A stretch of DNA of 12,347 nt. Origin: a virus. Lineage: Duplodnaviria; Heunggongvirae; Uroviricota; Caudoviricetes. Positions 1-12,347 of the stretch are shown piece after piece. The translations under genes were made by a program, and so were the position numbers. The notes under the pieces were generated by a model that worked only from the letters and a program-made list of their open reading frames with translations, was not told the origin of the DNA and ran no database searches. The DNA lies in the IMG/VR virus record IMGVR_UViG_2541047882_000003, positions 1 to 12,347 of that record, one strand, 5' to 3'. Positions within the stretch are counted from its first letter, which is position 1; each line of letters starts with the position of its first letter.

Positions 1-372
1 TTACTTCCTGCGTTTATCCTGCTTTGTATGCCCGTGCTGAATGCCCCGCAGTGGATCTTCTTTTTTCAGGTCGATCCCCATGTCCGTTAGTGTTTTTGTG
101 GCGGCGGTTCTTATGGCACAAATCAGGTCTCTTTCCGGTTCCCGGGTTATGGTTGCCTTCCGGATGCATGCCGTTCGTCGTTCCGTTACATACTGACGCG
201 CTTCATCACTTGCCGCCTGTTTCAGTAACTCACCCCAGCGATTAGCCGCCCGTCGCCATAAACCTTTCGCTTCCAGTTCTTCCGCTTTGTCATCATGCAC
301 CATAAGCATAATCCCATTGATACCTGTTAAATCTGAATGGTTGGTTTCTGTTCTTTTGATAATTTTCCGCAT
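1..372 (-). CDS. PerC-family-like small transcriptional regulator (paralog 1)
   Basis: Complete ORF of 123 aa (ATG as reverse complement of 370-372, TAA as reverse complement of 1-3). Motif DDKAEELEAKGLWRRAANRW matches the conserved core I associate with PerC/Pch activators and is shared with the 95-aa paralog at 4277..4564 (DSKAEELEAKGLYRRAAARW...CIR.A). No good SD at 372; alignment with the paralog suggests the real start may be the internal ATG at 303. Confidence 0.6.
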   Translation of the reverse strand: MRKIIKRTETNHSDLTGINGIMLMVHDDKAEELEAKGLWRRAANRWGELLKQAASDEARQYVTERRTACIRKATITREPERDLICAIRTAATKTLTDMGIDLKKEDPLRGIQHGHTKQDKRRK

Positions 373-387
373 AGCTTATTGTATGAC

Positions 388-399
388 AGTACTGTCCCA
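388..399. promoter_or_regulatory. 12-bp perfect palindrome GACAGTACTGTC in the 45-bp divergent intergenic region (candidate operator)
   Basis: Read directly: GACAGTACTGTC equals its own reverse complement, flanked by ATTGT...ACAAT. It lies between the divergent starts at 372 (-) and 418 (+). Confidence 0.35.
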
Positions 400-417
400 C
401 AATAAGGAGTTGCACGC

Positions 418-708
418 ATGAGAATGACCAGGCACAAAAAACAGATCCTTGAACTCTACAAACCTGAGTATCGCGATTGGGTGCGGGTGGAGGCTGGAGA
501 TCCACCTTTTGATGTTCGTGGTGTTACAGTGCTGCTCTATGGTTCCGAATATCAGCGATATCACATAGAGGCAACACGAAGGACGCTAAACGCTATGGTT
601 CGTGATAAGTTGCTGGAGCGTGTGAAAGTCCGTGAGCCACGTTTTGATGTGCGTATTGGTGGCGATGGTGCGCATTGCACGGTAATCCGCTATGGCCTGG
701 TAAGGTAA
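418..708 (+). CDS. hypothetical protein (96 aa)
   Basis: ATG at 418 preceded by a strong SD, AAGGAG at 405-410 (7-nt spacer). The ORF ends about 70 nt before a stem-loop plus T-run. No family recognised. Confidence 0.6.
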   Translation: MRMTRHKKQILELYKPEYRDWVRVEAGDPPFDVRGVTVLLYGSEYQRYHIEATRRTLNAMVRDKLLERVKVREPRFDVRIGGDGAHCTVIRYGLVR

Positions 709-738
709 GCCATCGGGTAAATCAGATGATTAAATCAC

Positions 739-760
739 CAGAATGTAAATTTACATTCTG
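739..760. repeat. 22-bp perfect palindrome CAGAATGTAAATTTACATTCTG between convergent genes
   Basis: Read directly; it is self-complementary over 22 bp. Could be a hairpin contributing to bidirectional termination or a protein-binding site. Confidence 0.5.
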
Positions 761-776
761 CCAGCCACCAGCTACC

Positions 777-803
777 CTCCTCAAAATTGAGGAGCCTTTT
801 TAT
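777..803 (+). terminator. candidate rho-independent terminator for the 418..708 gene
   Basis: 7-bp stem CTCCTCA/TGAGGAG (777-783 pairs with 788-794), 4-nt loop AAAT, then CC followed by TTTTT. Confidence 0.45.
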
Positions 804-810
804 CAACTGG

Positions 811-1101
811 TTACCGCCGTAACCGCTCCGGCTTCTTCCACTGGTAAGTCTTTTTCTCGCTCTCCCGGTACATCTGCACGCGGCGACGGTAGGCCAATAA
901 CTCGAGTACCCTGGTGCGTATGTCGCGCATATCCACTCCGTTAAGCTCAATACCGTCACGGCGCATCACCTCAGCCACCACACGCGCATAGTTCTCAGCG
1001 ATAACGCTGTCCGGCTGCGTGGCCTCCTGTTTGCCTGCTGGTGGTCTGATCCCGGCAATCTGGCGAATCATTTTGAGCATTTCGGCTTCGGTCATTGTCA
1101 T
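811..1101 (-). CDS. hypothetical protein (about 96 aa; alternative starts at 1095 or 1125)
   Basis: Long ORF 811..1125. GGAGG lies immediately upstream of the tandem ATGs at 1101 and 1095 (minus-strand sequence GGAGGCCATGACAATGACC), so I favour one of these over 1125. No family recognised. Confidence 0.5.
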   Translation of the reverse strand: MTMTEAEMLKMIRQIAGIRPPAGKQEATQPDSVIAENYARVVAEVMRRDGIELNGVDMRDIRTRVLELLAYRRRVQMYRESEKKTYQWKKPERLRR

Positions 1102-1390
1102 GGCCTCCAGAGGATGGGGAAACAATGCCGTAATTGTGGCGACTGATAACGGGAAGGTGAAGCGCGTTTAAGCTGGTGGATGTGGTGCCATGTTTCCCAC
1201 CAATGGTGGAAAAGCCCACCAGCGCAACGCAGGACGCATAAAACCATTGCGATGACTCATGACAGGGGGATAACCACAAAAACAACGTCAGCGGCGCGAT
1301 TCTGGCTGTTCCTGTCCGGGATGTGCATACGTATTACGTACGCAGTTAATCCGGCATAACGCATGACGTTGATGAAACGCCCCGATCATC

Positions 1391-1465
1391 GCGGGTCCTC
1401 CTGGATGGGTACCCTTACCGCGGGGCGACGGACGCGCGGAAAAAGGCTGGTTTTTGCATTTTCAT
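1391..1465 (+). other. cos-like site A (cosQ-like CGGGTCCTCCTGG, cosN-like dyad CCGCG-N10-CGCGG at 1418-1439); orphan, no terS downstream
   Basis: Alignable to the phage lambda cosQ-cosN junction as I remember it (lambda ACGGGTCCTTTCCGG...GTTACGGGGCGGCGACCTCGCGGG). The 36-bp core CCTTACCGCGGGGCGACGGACGCGCGGAAAAAGGCT is identical to inverted copy C at 4085..4170. Confidence 0.5.
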
Positions 1466-1865
1466 GGCGGCGGCAGCATGTGTGGTAATATATTGATAAT
1501 TAAAAGTTATTTCTGTTTTCACCTGTACAATCTTTTTTCTCCCCTGTCATTAGACCAGTTCGCAATCAATTGAAATATATAAATAAATCTGATTTTCACC
1601 TGCCAGATGGAGTTGCCAGTGTCAAATGTGAGCGGAAGCGGTGATGCTTATCACTGAATCATGCCGCATCACGATACCAGACTCCCGGTACCGCTGCGTG
1701 ATAACCCACAAGGCTGGTGGCGATGCGTTATGGTCCGTGCATTGCCATTCTCCTGGCCTGGTGGCATTATCCGGCATGAACGAGCGGTTATTCTCCGTAC
1801 TCTTAATCGTTGTTCATGGTTATTTTCTTTGTGGTAGCTGACTTCTTGATGTCCTTATCCTCCTG

Positions 1866-1890
1866 CCCCGTAATCACGGGGTATTTTTTT
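1866..1890 (+). terminator. rho-independent terminator (plus strand)
   Basis: CCCCG (1866-1870) / CGGGG (1877-1881) stem, 6-nt loop, followed by TATTTTTTT. The T-run is on the plus strand only. Confidence 0.5.
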
Positions 1891-2424
1891 ATCTGTGATT
1901 TGCTGTTCTTCGCTGTGTTGGTATGGGGAGTTCTGGCAATGGTTCAGGCCGTCGCTTTCCTGGTACGTGATTTTTTACGTTCATTATTGTGCTGGTGGCA
2001 GCGTCACGGTGTGTCACGACATGTCACCATCACGTCACGCTGATTGCGAAAGCCAGGATTAACCAGTACCGGAACGGGTAGCCCGGTGTATTGTTACCGT
2101 CCTGCCTGCTGGTGGAGTAATTGATAACGGTTATCATCAACGGGAGGGGCGGATCAAATCCCTGCAGTCCTGGCTGTCCGGGACCGCCCGCCTACCCTTG
2201 TTCACATCGCCGCAGGTTCGAAAACTTTTTTTTGGGAAGGTGTGCACAGACTTGATAGGTAAAACCTATCAGGTAAAGCCACGTCAAACCCGCGCCATTG
2301 CTGGCATCGTTAAAAAAACTCACTCCACCAGCAGGCTAAAAAACTGTGATTTTTCCAGCTTTTGGGGCTCAAAAAGGGCTCCCTAAAAAAACTCTCACAC
2401 TGTCGGAGGGGGCGGGAAATTTTC

Positions 2425-2640
2425 ACGGGTCCTTTCCGGGATCTGAAACACCGCGGGGCGGTAGACGCGCAGGATTTCACTATTTATGAAAATTTTTCAG
2501 GGGAAAAGCGTGTCGGTACTTCTCGCGCATAACTGTTTGTTTTTATTAAAATCAACCACCAGAAACATACGACATCATAAAGCCAAAAAATCCTGTTTTT
2601 TTGGCGTTTCATGTCGGAGGTGGTTTTTGATAATAAATTG
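2425..2640 (+). other. lambda-like cos site B (cosQ, cosN-like, cosB R3/I1-like elements); orphan, no terS downstream
   Basis: ACGGGTCCTTTCCGG at 2425-2439 is identical to the lambda cosQ 15-mer. After a 16-nt spacer comes CCGCGGGGCGGTAGACGCGC (lambda has GGGCGGCGACCT here). CTATTTATGAAAATTTT at 2480-2496 is identical to lambda positions just right of cosN. Further lambda-cosB-like text follows (CATAACT..GTTTTTATTAAAAT, then a dyad). The ORF at the Nu1-equivalent position is only 25 codons and unrelated to Nu1. Confidence 0.65.
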
Positions 2641-2756
2641 GTGGATTAATGTTAATAAAAATGTTTTTACTACCTGATGGAAACAACCGGAAACGTGCCG
2701 GAGAAATTACGGCAACAGAAAGGTGAGTGACAGCCGCGCAATTATTGAACAAAACT

Positions 2757-2953
2757 GAGAAAGGATCTGATAACGTCATTTTTGGCCCAAAATGCCTACT
2801 GTCAGATCCTTTCTTTTTTTGATGATTTTACGATTAAACAATGAGTTACAGAGAAGAAGAACGGATCTGACTTTTCCCGAAAAATTTTCATAAACAGTTA
2901 AGAATTGCGCGTACCCGTACCCCCGGCGCTTAAGGTTCCGGGAAGGACCCGCC
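2757..2953 (-). other. lambda-like cos site D, inverted relative to B (cosQ-like, cosN-like, R3-like, distal 13-bp inverted repeat)
   Basis: On the minus strand: GCGGGTCCTTCCCGG (reverse complement of 2938-2953), a GC dyad GCGCC..GCGC (reverse complement of 2905-2933), CTGTTTATGAAAATTTTTCG (reverse complement of 2878-2897, against lambda CTATTTATGAAAATTTTCCG), TCCGTTCTTCTTC..TAACT (against lambda TCCGTTCTTCTTCGTCATAACT), then a 13-bp perfect inverted repeat AGAAAGGATCTGA (2758-2770) / TCAGATCCTTTCT (2802-2814) resembling the lambda GAAAGGAAACGACAG...CTGTCGTTTCCTTTC dyad. Confidence 0.55.
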
Positions 2954-3067
2954 GGAGATAGCTACCATAAGGCGTAATTAAATATCCGTGGATGTGCCAC
3001 GGAACAACCAGCTGAATACAGGTCAGCGTGATGACGGGAAATAAAGAGAATGGTTGCGAATCCTCCA

Positions 3068-3092
3068 CCTGGTGAATCTCCTGCACTACCTG
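3068..3092. repeat. 25-bp direct repeat copy 1 (CCTGGTGAATCTCCTGCACTACCTG); duplicate of the terS 3-prime end
   Basis: Exact 25-bp match to 3444..3468, which encodes the last 8 codons of the terS-like gene. Copy 1 is not in an intact gene. Confidence 0.85.
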
Positions 3093-3364
3093 TCATTTTT
3101 GCGCAAATACCCCTGGCATTTCTAAGCATGATCAACCTGATCATTGTTCGCGGTTTTTACGTGGCAAGGCCAGTAATTACGGGGCTTACATCAATGTTTA
3201 TTCCGCCCATCTCTGCGCAAAACAACTTAACAAACCTTAACATCACAGGCGGAACCATTGCGCAAATCTGGAGGCTTACCGCACGCACCAGCCTGATACA
3301 TTGCCAGAATGAACGAGGTGCGACACAATGTGTGTGCATGTCTTACTCATTGAACCTCAATCAA

Positions 3365-3397
3365 GGCGCATCCTTAGCGGTGCGCTTTTATTTTTTT
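3365..3397 (+). terminator. candidate rho-independent terminator (plus strand)
   Basis: GCGCA (3365-3369) pairs with TGCGC (3380-3384), with possible extra CC/GG pairs, followed by TTTTATTTTTTTG. Confidence 0.4.
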
Positions 3398-3435
3398 GTC
3401 GTTCCCTGCTGGTGGATGTTTTCCGGTACCGCGAA

Positions 3436-3945
3436 TTATTCCCCCTGGTGAATCTCCTGCACTACCTGCGGCGTGCTGTCGTGCCAGTCGTTAGCCTGTA
3501 TCACTCTGGTAGTAATTTGCCTGCACAGGTCATCAATAATCTGCCTGACGCGGTTTACTGCGTTCTGATTGATGCCTGCATCGTGCGCCAGAATGTCGGG
3601 GAGTTTTGCCAGTTCCTCGCTTAAGATTTTCCCAAAAATAACCAACTCCCTGCGCACATCCACGGCGGGGATAAGTTCAGCCGTTTCCTGCTCGAACTTA
3701 AGGCGCTCACGCTCAGACTGGTACCAGGCTTTACGGCTTTGTGGATCCATGTCTTCGAGTGATGCGGGGGCGGGTATATTCATGAATGCGCTGATTATAT
3801 CCGTCAGTCGGTACAGCTTTAATTTTTCATGCCCTCCGGCTGGCTGAATGTCCTTTAGCCTTTTCGCTACTGTCTGGCGGCAAACTCCCGCCAGTTCTGC
3901 GAGTTGATTGATATTAAGTTTCAGGTTTTTAAGCTCCCGATCCAT
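3436..3945 (-). CDS. phage small terminase subunit, lambda Nu1 family (TerS-like); longest ORF extends to 3984
   Basis: N-terminal LNINQLAELAGVCRQTVAKRLKD...EKLKLYRLTDIISAF aligns with the lambda Nu1 winged-HTH region (VNKKQLADIFGASIRTIQNWQEQ...NEVLYDSAAVIKWY), and the length is similar (169-182 aa against 181). GGAGG lies 4 nt upstream of the ATG at 3945, so I favour that start. No large terminase ORF follows. Confidence 0.7.
   Translation of the reverse strand: MDRELKNLKLNINQLAELAGVCRQTVAKRLKDIQPAGGHEKLKLYRLTDIISAFMNIPAPASLEDMDPQSRKAWYQSERERLKFEQETAELIPAVDVRRELVIFGKILSEELAKLPDILAHDAGINQNAVNRVRQIIDDLCRQITTRVIQANDWHDSTPQVVQEIHQGE
3444..3468. repeat. 25-bp direct repeat copy 2 (within the terS 3-prime end)
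   Basis: Exact match to 3068..3092. Confidence 0.85.
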
Positions 3946-4084
3946 TCGTCCTCCGGTAGTTTTAAATGCGTATCGTGCGCTCATCTTTCAGTGGGTTAAA
4001 AGTGTTCTGTATGTTGAACAAAAAACACCCCAAATTAACATAGTAAAAATATATTTCATTTTAATTCAACATGTTGGAAAGATG

Positions 4085-4170
4085 ATGATGACGGATGAAA
4101 ATGTAAAAATTAGCCTTTTTCCGCGCGTCCGTCGCCCCGCGGTAAGGCCACCCCTCCGGAAGGACCCGTA
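4085..4170 (-). other. cos-like site C (inverted copy of A) about 140 bp upstream of the terS-like gene
   Basis: On the minus strand: ACGGGTCCTTCCGG (reverse complement of 4155-4168), then CCGCGGGGCGACGGACGCGCGG (reverse complement of 4120-4141), then AAAAAGGCT..ATTTTTACATTTTCAT. This is the lambda arrangement cosQ-cosN-cosB followed by Nu1, with similar spacing to the terS start. Confidence 0.55.
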
Positions 4171-4191
4171 AAAAAAGCCGGAGTGTTCCGG
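4169..4191 (-). terminator. rho-independent terminator after the PerC-like/FinO-like operon
   Basis: On the minus strand GCCGGAACACTCCGGC (6-bp stem, 4-nt loop) is followed by TTTTTTT, about 85 nt after the stop of 4277..4564. Confidence 0.6.
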
Positions 4192-4276
4192 CTTCGTCTG
4201 TGTATGTGCGCATATGCAGGATTTTATGTTATCCGCCCACGGGAGTGATGGTCATTTTTCAGGATAATATCCGGCA

Positions 4277-4564
4277 TCACTGGTTACCGCCAGGCTGCTT
4301 CGGGTAGTTCCGCCAGACGGATTTACCCGCGTCTTCCATCCCCATCACCGCATGAGTGCGGTTTACAGCCTCTTTCAGTGCCCCGAAGTTATCCGCCATA
4401 ACGGGTGGGCGTGCTGCCCTGCGGATGCATTCCGCGCGACGCTTTGCCACCTGTTCGCGCTCCTTATCGGTGTTCACCAGCTGCATGACCTCAGCCCACC
4501 GCGCCGCCGCTCTCCGGTACAGGCCTTTAGCCTCCAGTTCTTCCGCTTTGCTGTCACGAATCAT
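4277..4564 (-). CDS. PerC-family-like small transcriptional regulator (paralog 2)
   Basis: 95 aa with DSKAEELEAKGLYRRAAARWAEV, matching the paralog at 1..372. Its start overlaps the stop of the upstream gene (ATGA at 4561-4564), indicating translational coupling. Confidence 0.6.
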   Translation of the reverse strand: MIRDSKAEELEAKGLYRRAAARWAEVMQLVNTDKEREQVAKRRAECIRRAARPPVMADNFGALKEAVNRTHAVMGMEDAGKSVWRNYPKQPGGNQ

Positions 4565-5097
4565 GCGCCTGTCTTCTCCTTTGTCGCCTGACGTTTGCGC
4601 TTTTCATTCAGTGCTGCCAGCCGCGTTTCTGCCTCCTGCTGTTCCTGTGGTGTCACTTCCCCACATGGCTGGCCTTTCAGGTCGTAACGTGTGCCACCAG
4701 CCATTAAGGCGCGGTAATAGCGCGGAGACTGCGCATAAGATGCCAGCGTCGCACGTAATGCCCCCGGCCCGAATGTCAGCCCCCTGGCGGCGATATCCTG
4801 TATCAGGTCGTCGAATATCCCCACCTTAAGCGGCTTCGGTGCTTTATGGCTGAATAAGTCAGGCCACATCTCAGTGAGGCGGTTAACGCGTCGGCGGTTT
4901 TTGCGCTGCCTTTTGGTCATATGCTGCCACGGTGTCGCCCCTGCGGTCTTCTGTTTGCGGCTCTGCTGTGCGTTCTGATTATCGGGTATCACTTTATGCG
5001 CCGATGTGGTTTTATCCTGCTCTTGTGCCGCCTGCGTCGTTTTCTGCGGCGTGCCGTAAATGCCTTTCGGTTTTCGGTTAATGGTCAGCTTTGTCAT
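4561..5097 (-). CDS. ProQ/FinO-domain RNA-binding protein
   Basis: 178 aa. PLKVGIFDDLI and LRATLASYAQSPRYYRALMAGGTRYDLKGQPCGEVTPQEQQEAE align closely with the E. coli ProQ N-terminal FinO-like domain (PLKIGIFQDLV...LRSALRLYTSSWRYL..GATRVDLDGNPCGEL) as I remember it. It is preceded by a basic, Q/K-rich N-terminus. Confidence 0.8.
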   Translation of the reverse strand: MTKLTINRKPKGIYGTPQKTTQAAQEQDKTTSAHKVIPDNQNAQQSRKQKTAGATPWQHMTKRQRKNRRRVNRLTEMWPDLFSHKAPKPLKVGIFDDLIQDIAARGLTFGPGALRATLASYAQSPRYYRALMAGGTRYDLKGQPCGEVTPQEQQEAETRLAALNEKRKRQATKEKTGA

Positions 5098-5211
5098 GCC
5101 TTCCCCTGTAATTACGCTGTTCGCTGTTGTGAATTAAAACGGTATGTTATCCCCGTACGGGTCATCGTGCTGGCTTGTCTGTTGTTTTGCCCTGTTCAGT
5201 GCGTCAGTGGC

Positions 5212-5559
5212 CTAGCCCTGTTGACCTTTTTTGCCGCCCGGTCGCGCCGTTCGCGCACTGATTACGCTGTCTGCAATAACCTGCCAGCCCTGCCGCGTTT
5301 CCCCGTTCTGGCCTGTCCACTGGCTTACCTGCATGTTACCCGCCACGCTCACAAGTTCGCCTTTCTGGTGCTTTGCCAGTGCATCGGCCTGTCTGCCAAA
5401 TGCCAGGACGGATAACCACATCGTCGCCGTTCCGTCATCTGCCTGGCTGCACGGCAGGGGAACCGCCATACTCGCCATCGCCATTTGTGTCCCTTTGCTG
5501 GTGGTCTTTAACTGCGGGTCAGCCACCAGCCGCCCGTAAGCCGCTATCTGTGCTGTCAT
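5212..5559 (-). CDS. single-stranded DNA-binding protein-like (OB fold, no acidic C-terminal tail)
   Basis: 115 aa. IAAYGRLVADPQLK and TMWLSVLAFGRQADALAKHQKGELVSVAGNMQVSQWTGQNGETRQGWQVIADSV align with the E. coli SSB core (ILVGNLGQDPEV...[52 protein letters not shown]). GGAGAG lies 9 nt upstream; the start overlaps the upstream stop (ATGA). Confidence 0.7.
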   Translation of the reverse strand: MTAQIAAYGRLVADPQLKTTSKGTQMAMASMAVPLPCSQADDGTATMWLSVLAFGRQADALAKHQKGELVSVAGNMQVSQWTGQNGETRQGWQVIADSVISARTARPGGKKGQQG

Positions 5560-5906
5560 GCTGTATGCTCTCCGTTTTTAACGTTGATGGTTGTCACCTG
5601 TTCCGCTGTGCTGTTAGCCGGATACCATGCAAGCGTTCCCGGTTCATCTGAAAGAATGAATTTTGTGTCAGGCAAATACAGGCATTCGCAATATCCCTCT
5701 GCGCTGTGATGTGGTGTCATTCCCATATCACCAGTGAGTACCGGTAATATTTCAGAGTAAACCTCAGAATCACCGGAATAAAACACATCGCAAATCGCCC
5801 ATGCAGCAACCGGACTCCACCACTCGCCGCAATCGTCATTCCGGAATCTTGCCCACCAGCCAGGAACAGCCGGAGAAATGCTTTTTGGTATGGCTTCAAG
5901 AAACAT
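5556..5906 (-). CDS. hypothetical protein (116 aa, Trp-rich), translationally coupled to the SSB-like gene
   Basis: ORF with GAGGTG 7 nt upstream of the ATG at 5906. Its stop overlaps the SSB-like start. No family recognised. Confidence 0.55.
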   Translation of the reverse strand: MFLEAIPKSISPAVPGWWARFRNDDCGEWWSPVAAWAICDVFYSGDSEVYSEILPVLTGDMGMTPHHSAEGYCECLYLPDTKFILSDEPGTLAWYPANSTAEQVTTINVKNGEHTA

Positions 5907-5982
5907 AAAAACACCTCAATTTTTGTATATCTACAGAACCGTGTGGGTTACACCCGGCCTTTTTTCATCCATTACAGTGATA

Positions 5983-6133
5983 TTTTGCGGGTTATAATCG
6001 CGCTTTTGCGGGTTATTTAGGCCCATTTGCGGGTTATTTGGGGTATTTTGCGGGTTACGATTTTTCTGTCATTTCTTTAATAATCATATGGATACTGACT
6101 TATCCACAGAAATAACCCGCATAACCCGCAAAA
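5983..6133. repeat. iteron array (TTTGCGGGTTA x4 direct at 21-22 bp spacing, plus 2 inverted copies) with an AT-rich spacer; candidate replication origin
   Basis: Direct copies of TTTTGCGGGTTAT at 5983-5995, 6004-6016, 6025-6037 and 6047-6058. AT-rich stretch 6061-6100. Inverted copies ATAACCCGC (6112-6120) and ATAACCCGCAAAA (6121-6133). Located immediately downstream of the replication-protein stop at 6159. Confidence 0.6.
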
Positions 6134-6158
6134 TTTTCACCCTACACGCGAGAAAAAA

Positions 6159-8282
6159 TTAATCTTCTTCGCTTTCTGGCTGGAACATCAGCACGTAAAA
6201 AACATGCTGCTTCCCCCCAATCCTGCCGAGCGCCTTTTTCTTGTAACGGCGGTCGTTACCCTTTTCCAGCATCCCCGCCGCATCAAGCGCCCTTGCAAAA
6301 TGCGACGGATTAAATCCCTGTGCTATCTCACCCTCAAATACATGCGGGAACGTGTAAAAACGGAACTCGTCATCTTCGTTTCTGATACTCCCCTTTCTGT
6401 ATCCGGCAAGCTCTTTAATCGGTAAATCACGCTCGTCGGTGTTGGGCCACGGAAGGTATCTGCTGAATCCGAACGACGCTAAAAAAGCCTCTGCCTGTTC
6501 AACCATCTGTTTAAACTCCCTGTTACCCGTGCCGAATTCCTTCACCCAGGCATTAAAATTATGCTGAATGGCATCGCGGCATTCCTGCTCATCCCAGCCA
6601 GTAACATGACCGGAAAGCACAAGCGCGGCCTCCAGTATGGCGAAACGCTCACCCACACGGTGTACCTGCTCGCCGTAGCTCTCCGGTATCAGGTTGCGCC
6701 ACCGTTCTCGGCATGACCTTACCGTGTCCTTTGCCTCCTGCTGGTGGTCTGCCAGCCATTTAACCCATTCACGACCCGCCGCCCCGTGATTTTCTGTCCA
6801 GGCATCTTTTAACGCGTCTGCGTGCGCCTTTCCGGTGCTGTATTCGTGAAATTGTGTGGCTTTTTCCATCGGCACGTTAAGCAGGCGGACAAGCTGCCCC
6901 GCCTTGACTTTTATCCCCTCCGTTTTGAGGAATGTTTCAACGTCCATTTCTCCGGTACTGATTGCCACCGTTCTCCAGTGTTTTATCTCCCTGTTGCCGC
7001 CGTCCTTCGCCCCCTGTAATTTCCCGGAACCGTTAAACAGCGTATAAGCAGACGTTGACACCTCCCGCGCGTTTCCGGCCTGGCCTATTTCATCCAGGGG
7101 TAACAGCCCGTCGTTGTGTGCCTCTGCCTCGTTGGCGATACCTAACGCTGTACCGTACCAGGTCAGCCGTTGTGCGTCCGGCTCTCCCCATAAACTTGAT
7201 GCGATGTTCTGTGTGGTGGTTTTCCCTGCCGATGACTGTTCGAAAAGATGTACCCCGAAGCCGTCAGCACCCACCAGCCCGATTAATGGTGCAGATAACG
7301 ATACCGCCACACCCAGCATCATGGACGGATTACCACCAGCCAGCCGCGCAACGGTATCGCGCCAGCCTTCCGCCGTTCCTGCCACGGAATAGCCATTAAC
7401 AGCGGCAGTTTTTCCGGTAAACAGAATCGGTTTTTCAGACTCACCAATGACCGAACCGTCCGGCATGATGTACGCGCCAAAATGCCAGCCCGTTGTTGTG
7501 CTTAACTGCCATTCCTCATGGTTTCCGCTTAACTGCATCCAGTCAGCCAGGATAGCCCTGTATTTGCCGTTGGTTGTCACGTTCAGGCCGTGGTCTTTCA
7601 GCAACCGCCAGCCGTCACGGTCGCCAATGCCACCGCACGGAATCGCCATTGTGATGACTTCATGATTTGCTGGCTTTTTCCAGCGCATCACGCGGTAATG
7701 CTCTTTACCGATTGTCCCCGTTCCCAGTAGTTCAAGCGGGGAACATAACCACGTCTCAGGCCGGATAATTTCGCCTGACTGCTTGTCAACTTTTGGCGTT
7801 ACCCAGAAAACACCATCGGCGCGGCTTTCAACGCGGGGCTTTAATTCATCATCGCTATAGCTTCCTGTGGCTTTTTTCTTTAAGGGCAACACCAGACTTT
7901 CCCCGCGCTCGTATTCGTCTTTCAGCCGGGCAAGCTGTGGTGTCCAGTCCTCCAGTAAATCGCCGTTCTCGTCACAAAAACAGGCTTCCTTAACACCAGC
8001 CACTGCCAGCAGGGTTTCAATCTGTAGCGCCAGTTTGTCATCCAGTTTTCCGGCACGTCTGACGATGGCGCGTGACCGACCCTCATCCACAATACGCAGG
8101 TTTTCCAGATTACCCAGGTCACGCCGTCCGAGATAAACAGGTGGTATTTTGTCGCCGCGCTTTCTGGCTTCTCCGCCCTGCATGTAATGCTCTGCGTGGC
8201 TGTATGCGTCATCCCCCGCAAAAATCACTGCATCCTCGCCTTTATCTTTCGGTAACAGTTTTACGTTCGGTGCCAGTTTCAT
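6159..8282 (-). CDS. replication protein with P-loop NTPase domain (putative primase/helicase-type initiator of the element)
   Basis: 707-aa ORF. Walker A-like SSAGKTT and Walker B-like LLPLDE are visible. Its start overlaps the upstream stop (ATGA at 8279-8282) and an iteron array follows its stop. Assignment to a specific primase/helicase family is not verified. Confidence 0.75.
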   Translation of the reverse strand: MKLAPNVKLLPKDKGEDAVIFAGDDAYSHAEHYMQGGEARKRGDKIPPVYLGRRDLGNLENLRIVDEGRSRAIVRRAGKLDDKLALQIETLLAVAGVKEACFCDENGDLLEDWTPQLARLKDEYERGESLVLPLKKKATGSYSDDELKPRVESRADGVFWVTPKVDKQSGEIIRPETWLCSPLELLGTGTIGKEHYRVMRWKKPANHEVITMAIPCGGIGDRDGWRLLKDHGLNVTTNGKYRAILADWMQLSGNHEEWQLSTTTGWHFGAYIMPDGSVIGESEKPILFTGKTAAVNGYSVAGTAEGWRDTVARLAGGNPSMMLGVAVSLSAPLIGLVGADGFGVHLFEQSSAGKTTTQNIASSLWGEPDAQRLTWYGTALGIANEAEAHNDGLLPLDEIGQAGNAREVSTSAYTLFNGSGKLQGAKDGGNREIKHWRTVAISTGEMDVETFLKTEGIKVKAGQLVRLLNVPMEKATQFHEYSTGKAHADALKDAWTENHGAAGREWVKWLADHQQEAKDTVRSCRERWRNLIPESYGEQVHRVGERFAILEAALVLSGHVTGWDEQECRDAIQHNFNAWVKEFGTGNREFKQMVEQAEAFLASFGFSRYLPWPNTDERDLPIKELAGYRKGSIRNEDDEFRFYTFPHVFEGEIAQGFNPSHFARALDAAGMLEKGNDRRYKKKALGRIGGKQHVFYVLMFQPESEED

Positions 8283-8593
8283 TTTGCTTTTCCCCGTTCA
8301 CGAATAATTTCACGTACTGCCTTAATGCGTTCCATACCTGTAACGCGCATGATTCTGTCGATGTCGCTTAAGTTCGCTGGTGGTGCTTTGCTTACCAGGG
8401 TGAATTCACTCTCAAAACGCATATGTGACGACACGCAGGGATGCGCATAACCTTCGCGAATATAAGTCACGCGAAAATCGTCAACGGTTTTTATCGTTAT
8501 TCGTCCACCATATTTATCTTTGAAAATATCGCCGGGGCGGATTTCAGGCCGAGCGGGGCCGCTGGCAGTAAAGCCAGAAATTTTCTGTTTCAT
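8279..8593 (-). CDS. hypothetical protein (104 aa), coupled to the replication protein
   Basis: ORF with ATG at 8593; 4-nt overlap with the downstream rep start. No family recognised with confidence. Confidence 0.6.
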   Translation of the reverse strand: MKQKISGFTASGPARPEIRPGDIFKDKYGGRITIKTVDDFRVTYIREGYAHPCVSSHMRFESEFTLVSKAPPANLSDIDRIMRVTGMERIKAVREIIRERGKAK

Positions 8594-8598
8594 GGTTT

Positions 8599-8832
8599 TT
8601 ATTTCCCGGTGTGTTGTTCTTTATATCTGTCGTGCAAAAGATCTATTTCTTGTAGTTCCATTATTACCGGCTCAAGAAGCGTTATTAACGCCGTCGCAAT
8701 ATTGCTGTTGCGTTTATCTCTTTCATTATCGCCAAGCGTTCCAAGCCATAAGCGCAATATTTCAAGCATGTTTTCACTGTAAGCAAGAGCACGGTATGCA
8801 CGGTCTACTGTGTCATTGTAAATATCACACAT
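8599..8832 (-). CDS. hypothetical protein (77 aa)
   Basis: ATG at 8832 with GGAGG 9 nt upstream; overlaps the upstream stop by 8 nt (ATGTGTGA). Confidence 0.55.
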   Translation of the reverse strand: MCDIYNDTVDRAYRALAYSENMLEILRLWLGTLGDNERDKRNSNIATALITLLEPVIMELQEIDLLHDRYKEQHTGK

Positions 8833-9070
8833 GGCTTACATCCTCCGGGAATTTTCTTCTGTAACGCGCCTCTGCCACATATTCCGCATAGTCCGACGCA
8901 ATATTGAGAATCTCCGCACCCTCTGACCTGTAGCCACTGGTATTGATAAGAAAAAATGCGGCTTTTATCATGTCAGCAACGCCCAACAATGCGTCTGCTT
9001 CGTGTTCCGGTGCGCCATCAAATTCCTGTTTCAGGGCATTAAAACGATCATCACGCATAACCCCCCCCAT
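8825..9070 (-). CDS. hypothetical protein (about 82 aa from the ATG at 9070; track shows an alternative TTG start at 9085)
   Basis: The first in-frame ATG is immediately followed by the G8 tract (ATGGGGGGGG on the coding strand). Overlaps the end of the upstream ORF in another frame. Confidence 0.5.
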   Translation of the reverse strand: MGGVMRDDRFNALKQEFDGAPEHEADALLGVADMIKAAFFLINTSGYRSEGAEILNIASDYAEYVAEARYRRKFPEDVSHV

Positions 9071-9290
9071 TTTCACAATCAGCAATCAGGATAGCCCTGG
9101 CCTCATTCAGTGCCATATCAGCACTAAATTGCATAACAGCCAGTGAGTGAGGAACGAAAGCCCCGGCATATTCTGTTTCGCTGGTGGCGTACTTATGCGC
9201 CTTGTCTGCGATAACAGAAATATCAATCAGCGCATCAATCAGTGTTTTTATAGCTTCGGCGGCTGCGTCCGGACGGGTGTTATTGCACAT
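9051..9290 (-). CDS. hypothetical protein (79 aa)
   Basis: ATG at 9290 with AGGAGG upstream; the start overlaps the stop of the 68-aa ORF (ATGTGCAATAA). Its C-terminus is encoded across the G8 tract. Confidence 0.55.
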   Translation of the reverse strand: MCNNTRPDAAAEAIKTLIDALIDISVIADKAHKYATSETEYAGAFVPHSLAVMQFSADMALNEARAILIADCENGGGYA

Positions 9291-9486
9291 GGCGTACCTC
9301 CTGACGAATACGGGCGGCGAATACCATCACGCAACCAGCCGGGGATTGCTGGCGTGCTTCCTGTTCGCTGGTGGCCTCGATGGTAATCACGCGCGGTTGT
9401 GCCGTGCTCAGGGCGATAAAACGCCAGATGTATTTATTCAGGTTGTGCGAGTCCCGCCCTTGCTGGTGTGTGGTATAATTTCTCAT
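9280..9486 (-). CDS. hypothetical protein (68 aa), first gene of the leftward replication operon
   Basis: ATG at 9486 with GAGGT 6 nt upstream. It is the in-frame C-terminal part of the spurious 371-aa track ORF. Its stop overlaps the next start. Confidence 0.5.
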   Translation of the reverse strand: MRNYTTHQQGRDSHNLNKYIWRFIALSTAQPRVITIEATSEQEARQQSPAGCVMVFAARIRQEVRHVQ

Positions 9487-9581
9487 AGCTACCTCGATAC
9501 TCTCGTTATCGTTGGTGGTTAGAGGCTGCGAAAGGACGGCAATCCTTTCCAGCCTCGTTTGCATTGAGTGATAGTTACTCA

Positions 9582-9664
9582 ACTGGATTCCAGTATAATC
9601 ACTAAGTGGAATCCACTTCAAGCATTTTGTTTTGGTCTTTTTCGTGTATACTGGATTCCAGTAA
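9582..9664. promoter_or_regulatory. divergent control region with three odd-length palindromes (candidate operators) overlapping -10-like hexamers
   Basis: ACTGGATTCCAGT at 9582-9594 and again at 9651-9663 (CTGGA-T-TCCAG), and GTGGAATCCAC at 9607-9617. TATAAT at 9593-9598 and TATACT at 9647-9652 on the plus strand. Lies between the minus-strand operon start (9486) and the plus-strand small gene (9683). Confidence 0.45.
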
Positions 9665-9682
9665 TCACAAAGGAAACCAGAA

Positions 9683-9862
9683 ATGGAAAGAGACCATATC
9701 AATAACAAATCACAGAAATTACAGGCTCGCGCCCCGCATGAAGTTGTTGAGGCAATGGAGCAAGTCAAAGAAACGGGCGAGAGTACTGCGCAGTTTATCG
9801 TTACAGCCATGCGTGGCGAGATCAAACGCCGCCAGCGCCGCAAGGCCAAAGAGCAGGAGTAA
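9683..9862 (+). CDS. small ribbon-helix-helix-like DNA-binding protein (59 aa); candidate repressor
   Basis: Not in the supplied track (below its length cutoff). ATG at 9683 with AGGAA 7-8 nt upstream; TAA at 9860-9862. The translation MERDHINNKSQKLQARAPHEVVEAMEQVKETGESTAQFIVTAMRGEIKRRQRRKAKEQE has a strand-helix-helix pattern typical of Arc/CopG-type proteins. Confidence 0.5.
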   Translation: MERDHINNKSQKLQARAPHEVVEAMEQVKETGESTAQFIVTAMRGEIKRRQRRKAKEQE

Positions 9863-9919
9863 CCATCACCAGCGCCGTGGTGCGGTGAACTGTGGCGCAC
9901 AGGGTTATAGGTATCTACG

Positions 9920-10117
9920 ATGACTGACAAATCATTAAAGAAATTATCCTCATCCAGGAAAAAACAACGCAAAAACGCGGTAAGAGAACATGAACAGGAA
10001 AGATTCGCGCCATGTGCGTTTGTCCTTGAAAAGTTCCTTAAAGAGTACAGGCGCACAAAAATGGGATCGCATGCCTGGAAAACATCGCAGCATGGCGATA
10101 CTAAAGAGCAGGAATAG
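9920..10117 (+). CDS. hypothetical small basic protein (65 aa)
   Basis: ATG at 9920 with AGG 8 nt upstream; Lys/Arg-rich. Followed about 100 nt later by a plus-strand terminator. Confidence 0.4.
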   Translation: MTDKSLKKLSSSRKKQRKNAVREHEQERFAPCAFVLEKFLKEYRRTKMGSHAWKTSQHGDTKEQE

Positions 10118-10220
10118 CCCACCAGCAAGCCAGCACACTGATCACATTGCCCACCAGCCGCAAATGTGGCATTGTTGATTATGCTCATGCGTTGGCGATA
10201 ACGTGTAGCTTGTGTCGAAG

Positions 10221-10248
10221 GGCCACCGTAGCGGGTGGCCTTTGTTTT
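10221..10248 (+). terminator. rho-independent terminator for the plus-strand small genes
   Basis: GGCCACC (10221-10227) / GGTGGCC (10234-10240) stem followed by TTTGTTTT. Confidence 0.5.
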
Positions 10249-10399
10249 GCCTGTTATCCGGCAATTGTGGCGCTTCGCCACACGGTTGATATAATTCTCC
10301 TGCACTGATCCATTTTTTTCGCAGCAGGTTAATTGTTCGCAAGGGCGCTCCGGCAACGGGGCGCTTTTTGTTATGTTCATCGCGTTACGCCTCACACCA

Positions 10400-10606
10400 T
10401 TACGCAGCCGTTCCGCGCGCTTCTTCCTCGCGCTCTTTCAGCCAGGCCAGCACTTCATCTTCATACCAGCCAACACGACGCAGACCGATTTTGAAGCCTT
10501 TCGGGAATTTTCCGGCGTTGATCATGTCCTGTAGCGAACTGTCTGCCTTGATGCGCAGAATATTTTTTACTTCCTGACGGGTAAGTATTTTTCTGATTGT
10601 TTCCAC
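10400..10606 (-). CDS. alpA: AlpA-family phage transcriptional regulator
   Basis: 68 aa. ILTRQEV..IL........DMINAGKFPK...GLRRVGWYEDEVLAWL matches the AlpA pattern (LRL..V......A..T.Y.W......P...........VGW.E.E...WL). GAGGT about 8 nt upstream of the ATG. Position relative to a P4-type int is typical. Confidence 0.75.
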   Translation of the reverse strand: METIRKILTRQEVKNILRIKADSSLQDMINAGKFPKGFKIGLRRVGWYEDEVLAWLKEREEEARGTAA

Positions 10607-10677
10607 TATGTTTTACCTCGTTAATCCGGCGTATTCCGGTGATAAATACGGTAAAACAGGGCAGGGCGGGAAAAACA

Positions 10678-10714
10678 GTACCCACCGTTTTAAAACGGTA
10701 CCCACTGTTTTTTA
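10678..10714. promoter_or_regulatory. repeats upstream of alpA: 16-bp perfect palindrome ACCGTTTTAAAACGGT and direct repeats GTACCCAC(C/T)GTTTT
   Basis: Read directly in the alpA 5-prime region. Candidate operator/promoter elements. Confidence 0.35.
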
Positions 10715-10740
10715 TCTCATTGATTACGCTTTTCTTTCTG

Positions 10741-10771
10741 CAAAAAAATAGCGACCGCAAGGGGCCGCTAT
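10741..10771 (-). terminator. rho-independent terminator after the int/76-aa ORF transcript
   Basis: On the minus strand ATAGCGGCCCCTTGCGGTCGCTAT forms a hairpin followed by TTTTTTT, 6 nt downstream of the stop at 10777. Confidence 0.5.
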
Positions 10772-10776
10772 TGTGA

Positions 10777-11007
10777 TTACCGTTTCCACTTCTTAGGTCG
10801 CCCACCGCATTTAAGGCTGGTGGGCCTCAGCACCTTGTCGATGCTTTCAGCCAGATTTTTCGATGCGCCACGCGAGCGTAAAAAACTGACTACCTCGTGT
10901 TTTGTGGGGGCTGTTGATTTGTCTTCCGGATCGTATGTTGACCAGAATTCACGATTTGCCATTAACGCCAGTTGCAGCCCTTCGCCGTAGGCGGTGGTAT
11001 TTTGCAT
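10777..11007 (-). CDS. hypothetical small protein (76 aa) between int and alpA
   Basis: ORF with a basic C-terminus (GGRPKKWKR). Weak, AT-rich region upstream of the start. No family recognised. Confidence 0.45.
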   Translation of the reverse strand: MQNTTAYGEGLQLALMANREFWSTYDPEDKSTAPTKHEVVSFLRSRGASKNLAESIDKVLRPTSLKCGGRPKKWKR

Positions 11008-11105
11008 AATAGAATTTTCATATACTCCGGCCTTGTCGTTAAATTTGTGGCAATTATACGATGGTTTGGCATGGTTTGCATCGCTTTTACTGGCTTTTTA
11101 TACAG

Positions 11106-12347
11106 TTACACGGCACGGATACCCCTTTTACCACTGGCTATGGTCACTCCGGTAGCTGCGGCCTCTACAAATTCCCCCCACCAGCGCATAAGCACCACGC
11201 GCTTTTCCAGGTAGTTACTTCGGTTATATGCTCGCCTTACCTCGTTTGTGTCCACGTGTGCGAGTGCGGCCTCGATTACGTCCGGCTCGAATCCTTCCTC
11301 GTTCGCTGCTGTACTGAATATGGCGCGTAATCCGTGAGACACCAGCACACCAGCGTAACCCATCCGGCGCAATGCGGCGTTAGCTGTCTGGCTGCTCATT
11401 GGCAGCATTGGATTTTTAAGGCTGGGAAAAACGTGTTCCCTGTGTGCGCTGATTGGCTTCATGGTTTCCAGTACAGCCATAGCCTGACCGCAAAGGGGGA
11501 TCACGTGGTCACGGCGCATCTTCATGCGTCCGGCTGGAATCGTCCAGGTTTCGGCATCGAGATCTATTTCTTCCCAGCGTGCGGCGGCTGCTTCGGCTGG
11601 GCGTGCTACGGTCAGCAGTTGCCACTCAATCAGCAATCTGGTTTGCCGTTCTATGCTGGCGACCGATAAATCGTGCATTAGCTGCGGTAGCTGTTCCGGT
11701 CGGATGGTTGGCATGTGCTTTTTGGTGGGTGAGGGGAATGCCTTGCGGACGTTCGCGGCGGTGTTGATGTCAATCAGCCCACTGTTGGCAGCAAAATCCA
11801 TCACTTCATTGATGCGTTGTAAAACGCGTTTCAGAGTTTCCAGGTTGCCGCGTGCTTTAATGGGTGTGAGTATCTCAACAAAGCGGCGAGCTGTGAGGGT
11901 ATCTATTGGCGTGTTTCCGATGTACGGGAATACGTATTTTTCCAGGGATCGCCAGATATCCTTAATCGTGTTGTAAGCCAGATTCTGGCCTTTTTTCATC
12001 TCGTACCAGTCCGAGGCAACTTTTTCGAACGTGTTGCCCTTTTTCCGACTCTCTGCTTCACGTTTCCGGCGTTCGTGGTCCTGTGGGTCAACTCCCTTCG
12101 CTATGAGTGACCTGTATTCATTCCGTCGTTCTCTGGCATCGGACAGGGAAACATCATTCAGCGATCCGAGGCTGATGATAGTCCGTTTTTTATCTGCCGG
12201 GCGGTAGTACGTAAAACGCCAGATTTTTGATCCGGAGGGTTTCACCAGAAGAAATAATCCTCCACCATCCTGCAGGGTGTATTCCTTTTCCCCTGGTCGT
12301 GCGTTTTTGATCTCCGTGATGGTTAGTGGAGTGGTTTTTCGTGCCAT
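11106..12347 (-). CDS. int: tyrosine-type site-specific integrase, P4-like
   Basis: 413 aa. N-terminal DGGGLFLLVKPSGSKIWRFTYY arm-binding-like region and C-terminal HGLRAIFST ... AALAHVDTNEVRRAYNRSNY catalytic region (H-x-x-R and the terminal Tyr) are typical of P4-family integrases. The ATG is the last three bases of the window, so the upstream region and att site are not visible. Confidence 0.9.
   Translation of the reverse strand: MARKTTPLTITEIKNARPGEKEYTLQDGGGLFLLVKPSGSKIWRFTYYRPADKKRTIISLGSLNDVSLSDARERRNEYRSLIAKGVDPQDHERRKREAESRKKGNTFEKVASDWYEMKKGQNLAYNTIKDIWRSLEKYVFPYIGNTPIDTLTARRFVEILTPIKARGNLETLKRVLQRINEVMDFAANSGLIDINTAANVRKAFPSPTKKHMPTIRPEQLPQLMHDLSVASIERQTRLLIEWQLLTVARPAEAAAARWEEIDLDAETWTIPAGRMKMRRDHVIPLCGQAMAVLETMKPISAHREHVFPSLKNPMLPMSSQTANAALRRMGYAGVLVSHGLRAIFSTAANEEGFEPDVIEAALAHVDTNEVRRAYNRSNYLEKRVVLMRWWGEFVEAAATGVTIASGKRGIRAV

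Follow-up and report, generated by a model that had tools for sequence, protein, structure and literature searches.

The stretch of DNA considered here, referred to throughout as the window, is the whole of positions 1 to 12,347 (12,347 nucleotides) of the IMG/VR virus record IMGVR_UViG_2541047882_000003 (Caudoviricetes), and our subject is a block of short repeats at 5984-6132 that directly follows rep, the gene for a 707-amino-acid (aa) protein (6159-8282, minus strand). The genes called in the window all lie on a single strand, the minus strand. Reading past rep in its own direction there follow the stop codon, a tandem pair of repeats, an AT-rich spacer, four repeats of opposed orientation, a gene for a 116-aa protein and then the genes for SSB, ProQ/FinO, PerC and DUF1441 proteins, the last of these belonging to a small-terminase (TerS-like) family. 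Upstream of rep are a DUF4222 gene, small open reading frames (ORFs), an Icd-like gene, AlpA (E 4.5e-8) and a tyrosine integrase, the domains of which were found by domain scan. The window is virtually identical to a chromosomal island of Escherichia coli PSS-15 (L001) that adjoins tRNA-Pro and yejM, a location on the list of sites of published Gram-negative phage-inducible chromosomal islands (PICIs), and its gene order is syntenic with that of EcCICFT073 and EcCIEDL933. The integrase, AlpA, the tRNA-Pro/yejM site and the gene order shared with EcCICFT073 together identify the element, as judged from its sequence, as a PICI of E. coli. The att core published for PICIs of the yejM site does not occur in the window, which ends at the start of the integrase.

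Four exact copies of TTTGCGGGTTA lie on the plus strand at 5984-5994, 6005-6015, 6026-6036 and 6047-6057, with start-to-start distances of 21, 21 and 21 bp; we refer to these as the distal iteron set (5984-6057). Opposed to them, on the minus strand, is the proximal pair (6113-6132), a tandem of two copies 9 bp apart which reads, in the direction of rep, as an exact TTTGCGGGTTA (6122-6132) and then as TATGCGGGTTA (6113-6123), which carries one mismatch. The two iterons on the one side and the four on the other flank a spacer of 54 bp (6058-6111), the presumed site of melting, or unwinding, whose GC content is 29.6%, the window as a whole having 50.4%; no more than 1.8% of the 54-nt windows are as AT-rich (1.8th percentile). 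The initial annotation, which described four direct repeats about two helical turns apart, an AT-rich spacer and two inverted copies, is borne out on each of these points. The coordinates that it gave, 5983-6133, cover the main block, but a seventh, degenerate copy, TGTGGGTTA, falls outside them at 5942-5950 on the plus strand. The array lies 3' of the 707-aa ORF, with 26 nt between the stop codon of rep (6159-6161) and the nearest repeat end.

A search of the whole window for TTTGCGGGTTA with up to one mismatch returned six matches, every one of them within the block, where 0.33 would be expected, and none of 200 dinucleotide-preserving shuffles reached six. The 8-nt core of the repeat, GCGGGTTA, likewise occurs exactly six times in the window and never outside the block, so that this exact-core search reveals no second iteron cluster elsewhere in the window. 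No Rfam family matches the region at E values up to 1, no consensus site for integration host factor (IHF) is present in the window's origin region, and a full-text search of the literature for the core GCGGGTTA returned primer lists only.

The 707-aa protein carries a DUF927 domain (E 3e-46) and has no other match in Pfam. Its sequence matches the structure of SaPIbov1 Rep (PDB 8tch) with an E value of 2e-15 as a single sequence and 2.9e-17 as a profile and, less strongly, that of the SCCmec protein Cch (5dgk); these two proteins are also the only significant fold matches of Rep. In the aligned core Rep and SaPIbov1 Rep share approximately 15% identity, and their C-terminal domains do not align. 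The residues G353-K354-T355 and D397-E398, which on our own reading of the sequence would represent the Walker A and Walker B motifs, are invariant in 51 Rep homologues. None of the island proteins that were scanned belongs to a plasmid Rep family. Rep is, on this sequence evidence, a homologue of the SaPIbov1 Rep initiator-helicase and of SCCmec Cch, two proteins that are themselves related through DUF927 (PMC7581432, PMC9371898). In the Staphylococcus aureus pathogenicity islands (SaPIs) the C-terminal domain of Rep recognises an iteron origin directly downstream of rep (PMC7581432, PMC9371898), in which iterons of opposite direction flank a central AT-rich region that is melted by Rep (PMC9371898, PMC7581432).

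We compared the window with loci encoding relatives of Rep, 26 in all and from at least seven genera, the sources being E. coli, E. albertii, Salmonella, Klebsiella, Serratia, Yersinia, Plesiomonas, Tenebrionibacter and metagenomic assemblies. The geometry of the repeats is constant in every intact locus: two to three tandem copies, 9 bp apart, begin 24-30 nt past the stop codon of rep, a gap of 50-60 bp follows that is visibly AT-rich and divergent in sequence, and beyond the gap lie three to four opposed copies at a spacing of 11 or 21 bp. The repeat itself is not constant. Six subtypes of the Rep C-terminal domain correspond to six iteron cores, namely GCGGGTTA for subtype A1 (to which the window belongs), GTGGGTTA for A2, TTGTCCCA for B1, TTATCCCA for B2, TTGTCTCA for D and GTTGGTTCA for C. 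C-terminal domains that are 47-67% identical go with cores one base apart, more distant domains go with unrelated cores, and the class C domains, mutually 69-71% identical, have one core in common. A class C relative from Klebsiella has been deposited as a circular episome of 16 kb.

It is the last ~110 residues of Rep, and these only, that the repeat core tracks (in the window approximately residues 596-707, encoded at 6162-6497 on the minus strand). Residues 145-595 are nearly identical in six E. coli alleles, and both the N-terminal class of Rep and the gene downstream vary independently of iteron type. The point is made most directly by two pairs of loci, L004 with L005 and L003 with L006, in which rep is mostly 84-100% identical until ~350 nt before the stop codon, the C-terminal domain and iterons are just 22-64% identical, and the DNA beyond the repeats is mostly 86-100% identical again; this pattern means that domain and repeats are transferred jointly, as a single cassette. 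The rep-ori DNA homology to other islands breaks off, moreover, only a few bases from the outermost repeat. Within a class the cores are held constant, for amongst eight aligned class A1 origins 39 of the 41 columns in iteron cores are invariant, as compared to 61 of the 116 non-core columns (Fisher p 1.7e-7), and this pattern of substitution shows the iteron cores to be under purifying selection. From the co-variation we infer that the C-terminal domain is the part of Rep that reads the repeats.

Taken with the homology of Rep to the SaPI initiators, the synteny with EcCICFT073 and the co-variation of iterons and C-terminal domains across the 26 loci, this anatomy leads us to regard the block 5984-6132 as very probably the replication origin of the E. 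coli PICI next to tRNA-Pro/yejM, and the claim of the initial annotation, an origin of the iteron type in the position that it has in the pri-rep-ori modules of satellites, is thereby upheld.

In many relatives of the island a second iteron unit mirrors the first, with two copies 21 bp apart, a gap and then two or three tandem copies at 9-bp spacing, and the two units make the region one large palindromic arrangement. This second unit, which may serve as a second origin or as a site of control or handcuffing, is present in L004 (2310-2443), L005, L010, L013, L018, L026, L028, L029 and L035, and EcCIEDL933 is among the relatives that have it in full. The degenerate copy TGTGGGTTA of the window, which in alignment falls on the final tandem iteron of L004's second unit, is the remnant of such a unit.

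Between this remnant and the next gene, 17 nt upstream of its ATG, is a TATATA-rich, near-palindromic motif, TGTAGATATACA (5924-5935, minus strand), which also lies outside the coordinates first given for the region. Motifs resembling GTTTTGTATATATAC precede the first downstream gene by ~15-26 nt in 10 loci, which between them cover all iteron classes. The initial annotation held that the repeat region must also contain the promoter of the downstream operon, and this has not been established. The sole sigma-70-like match in the region (6072 to 6045, minus strand) is weak, agreeing at nine of 12 positions, and the number of sigma-70-like sites in the region is not above that in shuffles. Behind rep the coding strand has no intrinsic terminator; read-through may therefore suffice, and a promoter is not required. 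Gram-negative PICIs are, in addition, transcribed unidirectionally (PMC6092414). If there is a dedicated signal, the motif at 5924-5935 is the better candidate, either as a -10 element or as the site of a regulator. Its resemblance to an SOS box led us to consider a LexA site, which was rejected on the grounds that the CTGT...ACAG ends are missing in most loci. The operon itself was described as SSB-like; an SSB gene is indeed present (5212-5559), but it is the second gene, the first being that of the 116-aa hypothetical protein.

How far the co-variation carries the case for an origin has to be weighed with some care, as several points tell against it. The loci share ancestry, so that the effective sample is the six specificity classes and not 26 independent points, and co-variation speaks for Rep reading the repeats and not, by itself, for replication starting there. 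No primase domain is recognisable in Rep by domain and profile scans; the match to a phage 'DNA primase' profile begins only at position 243, and longer relatives of Rep are annotated with TOPRIM plus DUF927. As for the C-terminal domain, when isolated it matches the Pfam family HTH_56, the 'Cch helix turn helix domain', with an E value of 9.5e-4 and a score of 19.6 bits, which is weak and under the curated cut-off of 26.2 bits, and amongst the 51 full-length homologues of Rep this family is found in just one. The AF2 model of the domain has a low pLDDT (46) and an order of elements that reads helix-helix-hairpin; the models were built from a shallow alignment of 51 sequences at least 64% identical, and are unreliable both for this domain and for the ATPase core. 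The C-terminus of Cch gives a match to that of Rep that is colinear and non-significant. A winged-helix or helix-turn-helix (HTH) nature of the domain is thus weakly supported by these models and profiles.

The rival explanation that draws most on these points is that the repeats are Rep sites used mainly for control, be it autoregulation, repression of the SSB operon or a handcuffing type of copy control and incompatibility, with initiation taking place elsewhere. Co-variation tells only that Rep reads the sites; the second mirrored unit, which in many relatives abuts the TATATA-rich motif just before the downstream gene, looks regulatory, and transcription from the weak promoter-like match (6072 to 6045) would run through the four direct copies. 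Against this, the unit adjacent to rep has the full anatomy of an origin, with opposed iterons, an AT-rich gap and a DnaA box, the same layout is a functional ori in EcCICFT073 and in the SaPIs (PMC6092414, PMC9371898), and the window has no other iteron cluster. We consider a mainly regulatory role improbable, and note that the same sites could serve both control and initiation. Still less likely is it that the repeats are bound by AlpA, PerC, a host factor or some other regulator that is not Rep. The location is what one might expect of a promoter/operator array, being intergenic, upstream of the string of 116-aa, SSB, ProQ and PerC genes and provided with one weak sigma-70-like match, but the repeats change with the C-terminal domain of Rep while the flanking and downstream genes stay, and the converse is also seen; promoter-like sites are no more frequent than in shuffles, and with no terminator behind rep a promoter is not needed.

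Satellites also carry packaging sites, cosB-like regions typically have repeated protein-binding elements and the island encodes a TerS-like protein of the DUF1441 family, all of which might suggest a cos/pac or TerS-binding site or, alternatively, a recombination site. That the repeats track the C-terminal domain of Rep, and that the same repeats are found alongside different packaging modules (a classical PICI here, the capsid-forming island in EcCIEDL933), makes this highly unlikely, and the sole match to a lambda-type cosN (two mismatches) lies at 10795, far from the region. Chance, or a neutral tandem duplication devoid of function, has only its generality to recommend it; six matches against 0.33 expected, a count that no shuffle reached, an architecture kept across genera despite differing sequences and cores conserved against diverged spacers (p 1.7e-7) reduce its probability to almost nothing. 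The co-variation and the conservation of the cores thus disfavour a non-Rep regulator, a packaging site and chance alike, and an origin read by Rep is the interpretation that we carry forward.

If the block is the origin, the SaPI system, from which the biochemical steps are borrowed, suggests how it might work. After induction, the 707-aa Rep of the island, a DUF927, MCM-like helicase-initiator, would be made, and its C-terminal ~110 residues would recognise the 8-11-nt iteron (T)TTGCGGGTTA. Rep would assemble on both of the opposed iteron sets, most likely as two hexamers, the 54-bp AT-rich spacer would be melted and the helicases would load themselves onto the single strands. The excised circle would then be copied, presumably in both directions, with priming and polymerase supplied by the host or the helper. 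In class A1 host DnaA may assist the opening from its box at one edge of the spacer.

This box, TTATCCACA (6100-6108, plus strand), has the consensus sequence, lies within the spacer where it abuts the proximal iteron pair, and is present as a single copy in the window, against an expectation of 0.07. In all eight of the E. coli class A1 origins TGTGNATAA is kept, the sole variable base, which is G, T or C, being the degenerate N of the consensus, and outside the box the class A1 spacer diverges. In the other iteron classes the box is weaker or absent. We tentatively put forward the proposal, which we think more doubtful than not, that in class A1, and there only, the helicase-initiator may work together with host DnaA at the origin and that, across the classes, the Rep C-terminal domain and iterons form an exchangeable cassette, of which there would be at least six orthogonal versions. 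Should it hold, the origin would be a hybrid of the plasmid-type, DnaA-assisted origin and the SaPI/SV40-type origin in which the initiator is the helicase; replication of the satellite would be tied to the host initiator, and the specificity cassette could set which co-resident satellites cross-activate or interfere.

The genes on either side of the rep-ori unit invite some further observations. The DUF4222 gene (8279-8593, minus strand) overlaps the start codon of rep and is kept upstream of three families of initiator, namely DUF927, 'DNA primase family' and RepA helicase; in SCCmec a small ssDNA-binding protein is encoded in a similar position, ahead of cch (PMC7581432). Downstream, the 116-aa hypothetical protein (5556-5906, minus strand) has no Pfam match, belongs to PHROG 27268 and is annotated as hypothetical in L001. 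The SSB gene that follows it (5212-5559, minus strand; Pfam SSB, E 2.4e-16) encodes 115 aa as the result of a premature stop, the intact allele in PSS-15 being of 140 aa, and the protein of the window retains the OB-fold part but is without the C-terminal tail that ends in DDPYGDNIPF. Such tails of SSB are expected to mediate the binding of partners. Two PerC-family genes are carried by the island (1-372 and 4277-4564, minus strand), and some PerC homologues of PICIs activate the LEE pathogenicity island (PMC6092414). Between the DUF1441 and PerC genes the PSS-15 island has an IS21-family element, ISEc12 (istA/istB; L001 4743-7045), which is missing at the corresponding place in the otherwise identical window (~3990-4270).

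At the far end of the island approximately 2 kb (1400-3400) hold no convincing ORF, all those listed being of at most 133 aa and the longest starting at 3050, and the counterpart in PSS-15 (L001 1660-3463) has no annotated gene. This stretch holds several Chi sites and several very AT-rich patches. Chi sites, GCTGGTGG, are in fact spread over the whole window (765, 1037, 1172 ... 11178) and number 23 in 12.3 kb, with 12 on the plus and 11 on the minus strand, where shuffles lead one to expect 0.41. The density in eight other PICI loci, EcCICFT073 amongst them, is 0.86-1.25 Chi sites per kb, and a Klebsiella episome that is a capsid-forming PICI has 13, of which 12 are on one strand. Such numbers suggest that the islands either depend on the RecBCD of the host or are shielded from it. 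A Chi site specific to the origin had been considered, as CTGGCTGGTGG stands just past the last iteron in several loci, and was dropped when the whole island proved to be saturated with Chi.

The satellite family is present in 253 of 5,426 complete E. coli genomes (~5%), including that of O157:H7 EDL933, and the present analysis marks its unannotated origin. A DUF927 rep is carried by 738 E. coli genomes. The predicted pairs of Rep and iteron specificities could be used in binding and replication assays, in studies of satellite cross-talk and as small orthogonal replicons.

The initial annotation spoke of a classic iteron/unwinding-element architecture, and amongst known systems the classical iteron plasmids invite comparison. 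The initiators of these plasmids are small winged-helix Rep proteins that have no helicase activity and depend upon DnaA and DnaB-DnaC. With pSC101, F, P1, RK2 and R6K (PMC4980987) the window shares direct repeats at about two helical turns (a period of 21 bp here, ~22 bp in the classical plan), an AT-rich element and a DnaA box. It differs in its initiator, a homologue of the DUF927 P-loop helicases, and in having two opposed iteron sets around the AT-rich stretch, and these two features rule out a classical iteron plasmid origin; the design is of the PICI/SaPI type, and not of the plasmid type with its direct repeats on one side only and its non-helicase Rep.

Phage P4 offers a parallel in concept. 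Its alpha protein, which we take to be a large replication protein that combines a helicase with a C-terminal origin-binding domain recognising short repeats, resembles Rep in this respect, and both belong to enterobacterial phage satellites. The P4 repeat, presumably TGTTCACC, occurs once in the window, at 4471, which is the level of chance, and Rep matches only DUF927 in Pfam; a P4-type replicon was rejected on these two grounds. The Pri-Rep alleles of PICIs are also described as differing from P4 alpha (PMC6092414).

The architecture is that of the PICIs, the region 3' of the initiator gene in the Gram-negative members being reported always to have two sets of iterons that flank an AT-rich region (PMC6092414). 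In EcCICFT073 (L008) the rep-ori segment maintains a plasmid, and rep or ori mutants do not (PMC6092414). The gene order common to this island and the window runs int, alpA, icd-like, DUF4222, rep, ori, small gene, SSB, PerC, and its origin is like that of the window in that two tandem copies with 9-bp spacing come right after the stop codon and opposed copies lie beyond an AT-rich gap. Its initiator is different, a 584-aa 'DNA primase family protein' and not a DUF927 protein, its iteron, TGTCTACC, is unrelated to that of the window and its layout is more complex.

EcCIEDL933, the prototype of the capsid-forming PICIs, replicates after induction by the helper HK106, and its rep is described as shared with EcCIED1a, whose Pri-Rep allele is one of four in the paper of 2018 (bioRxiv 10.1101/2022.09.08.507074); the EcCIED1a allele is probably of the DUF927 type. 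Like the window it encodes a class A1 DUF927 Rep (84% identity overall, 89% in the C-terminal domain) and has GCGGGTTA iterons, a DnaA box in the same place and a DUF4222 gene upstream. It differs in the sequence of the spacer, in the position of the fourth distal iteron, which is 11 bp from the third (21 bp in the window), and in having a complete second mirrored unit where the window has one degenerate copy. It also encodes its own capsid, in its packaging module, and is integrated at roxA-phoQ, in both of which it is unlike the island in the window. No study that dissects the function of its ori was found.

With SaPIbov1, finally, the window shares a homologous DUF927 initiator-helicase, an origin directly downstream of rep and opposed iterons flanking a central AT-rich region, the role of the C-terminal domain in the window being assigned by inference. 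The iterons of the SaPIs are of 5-6 nt, whereas the core in this group of Rep proteins is of 8-11 nt with a strict phasing of 9, 11 or 21 bp, and the window differs further in its Gram-negative host and in the DnaA box of class A1. This kind of origin had already been described, in the Gram-negative PICIs in 2018 and in the SaPIs earlier, and the origin described here leaves the known picture of the replication of these islands unchanged.

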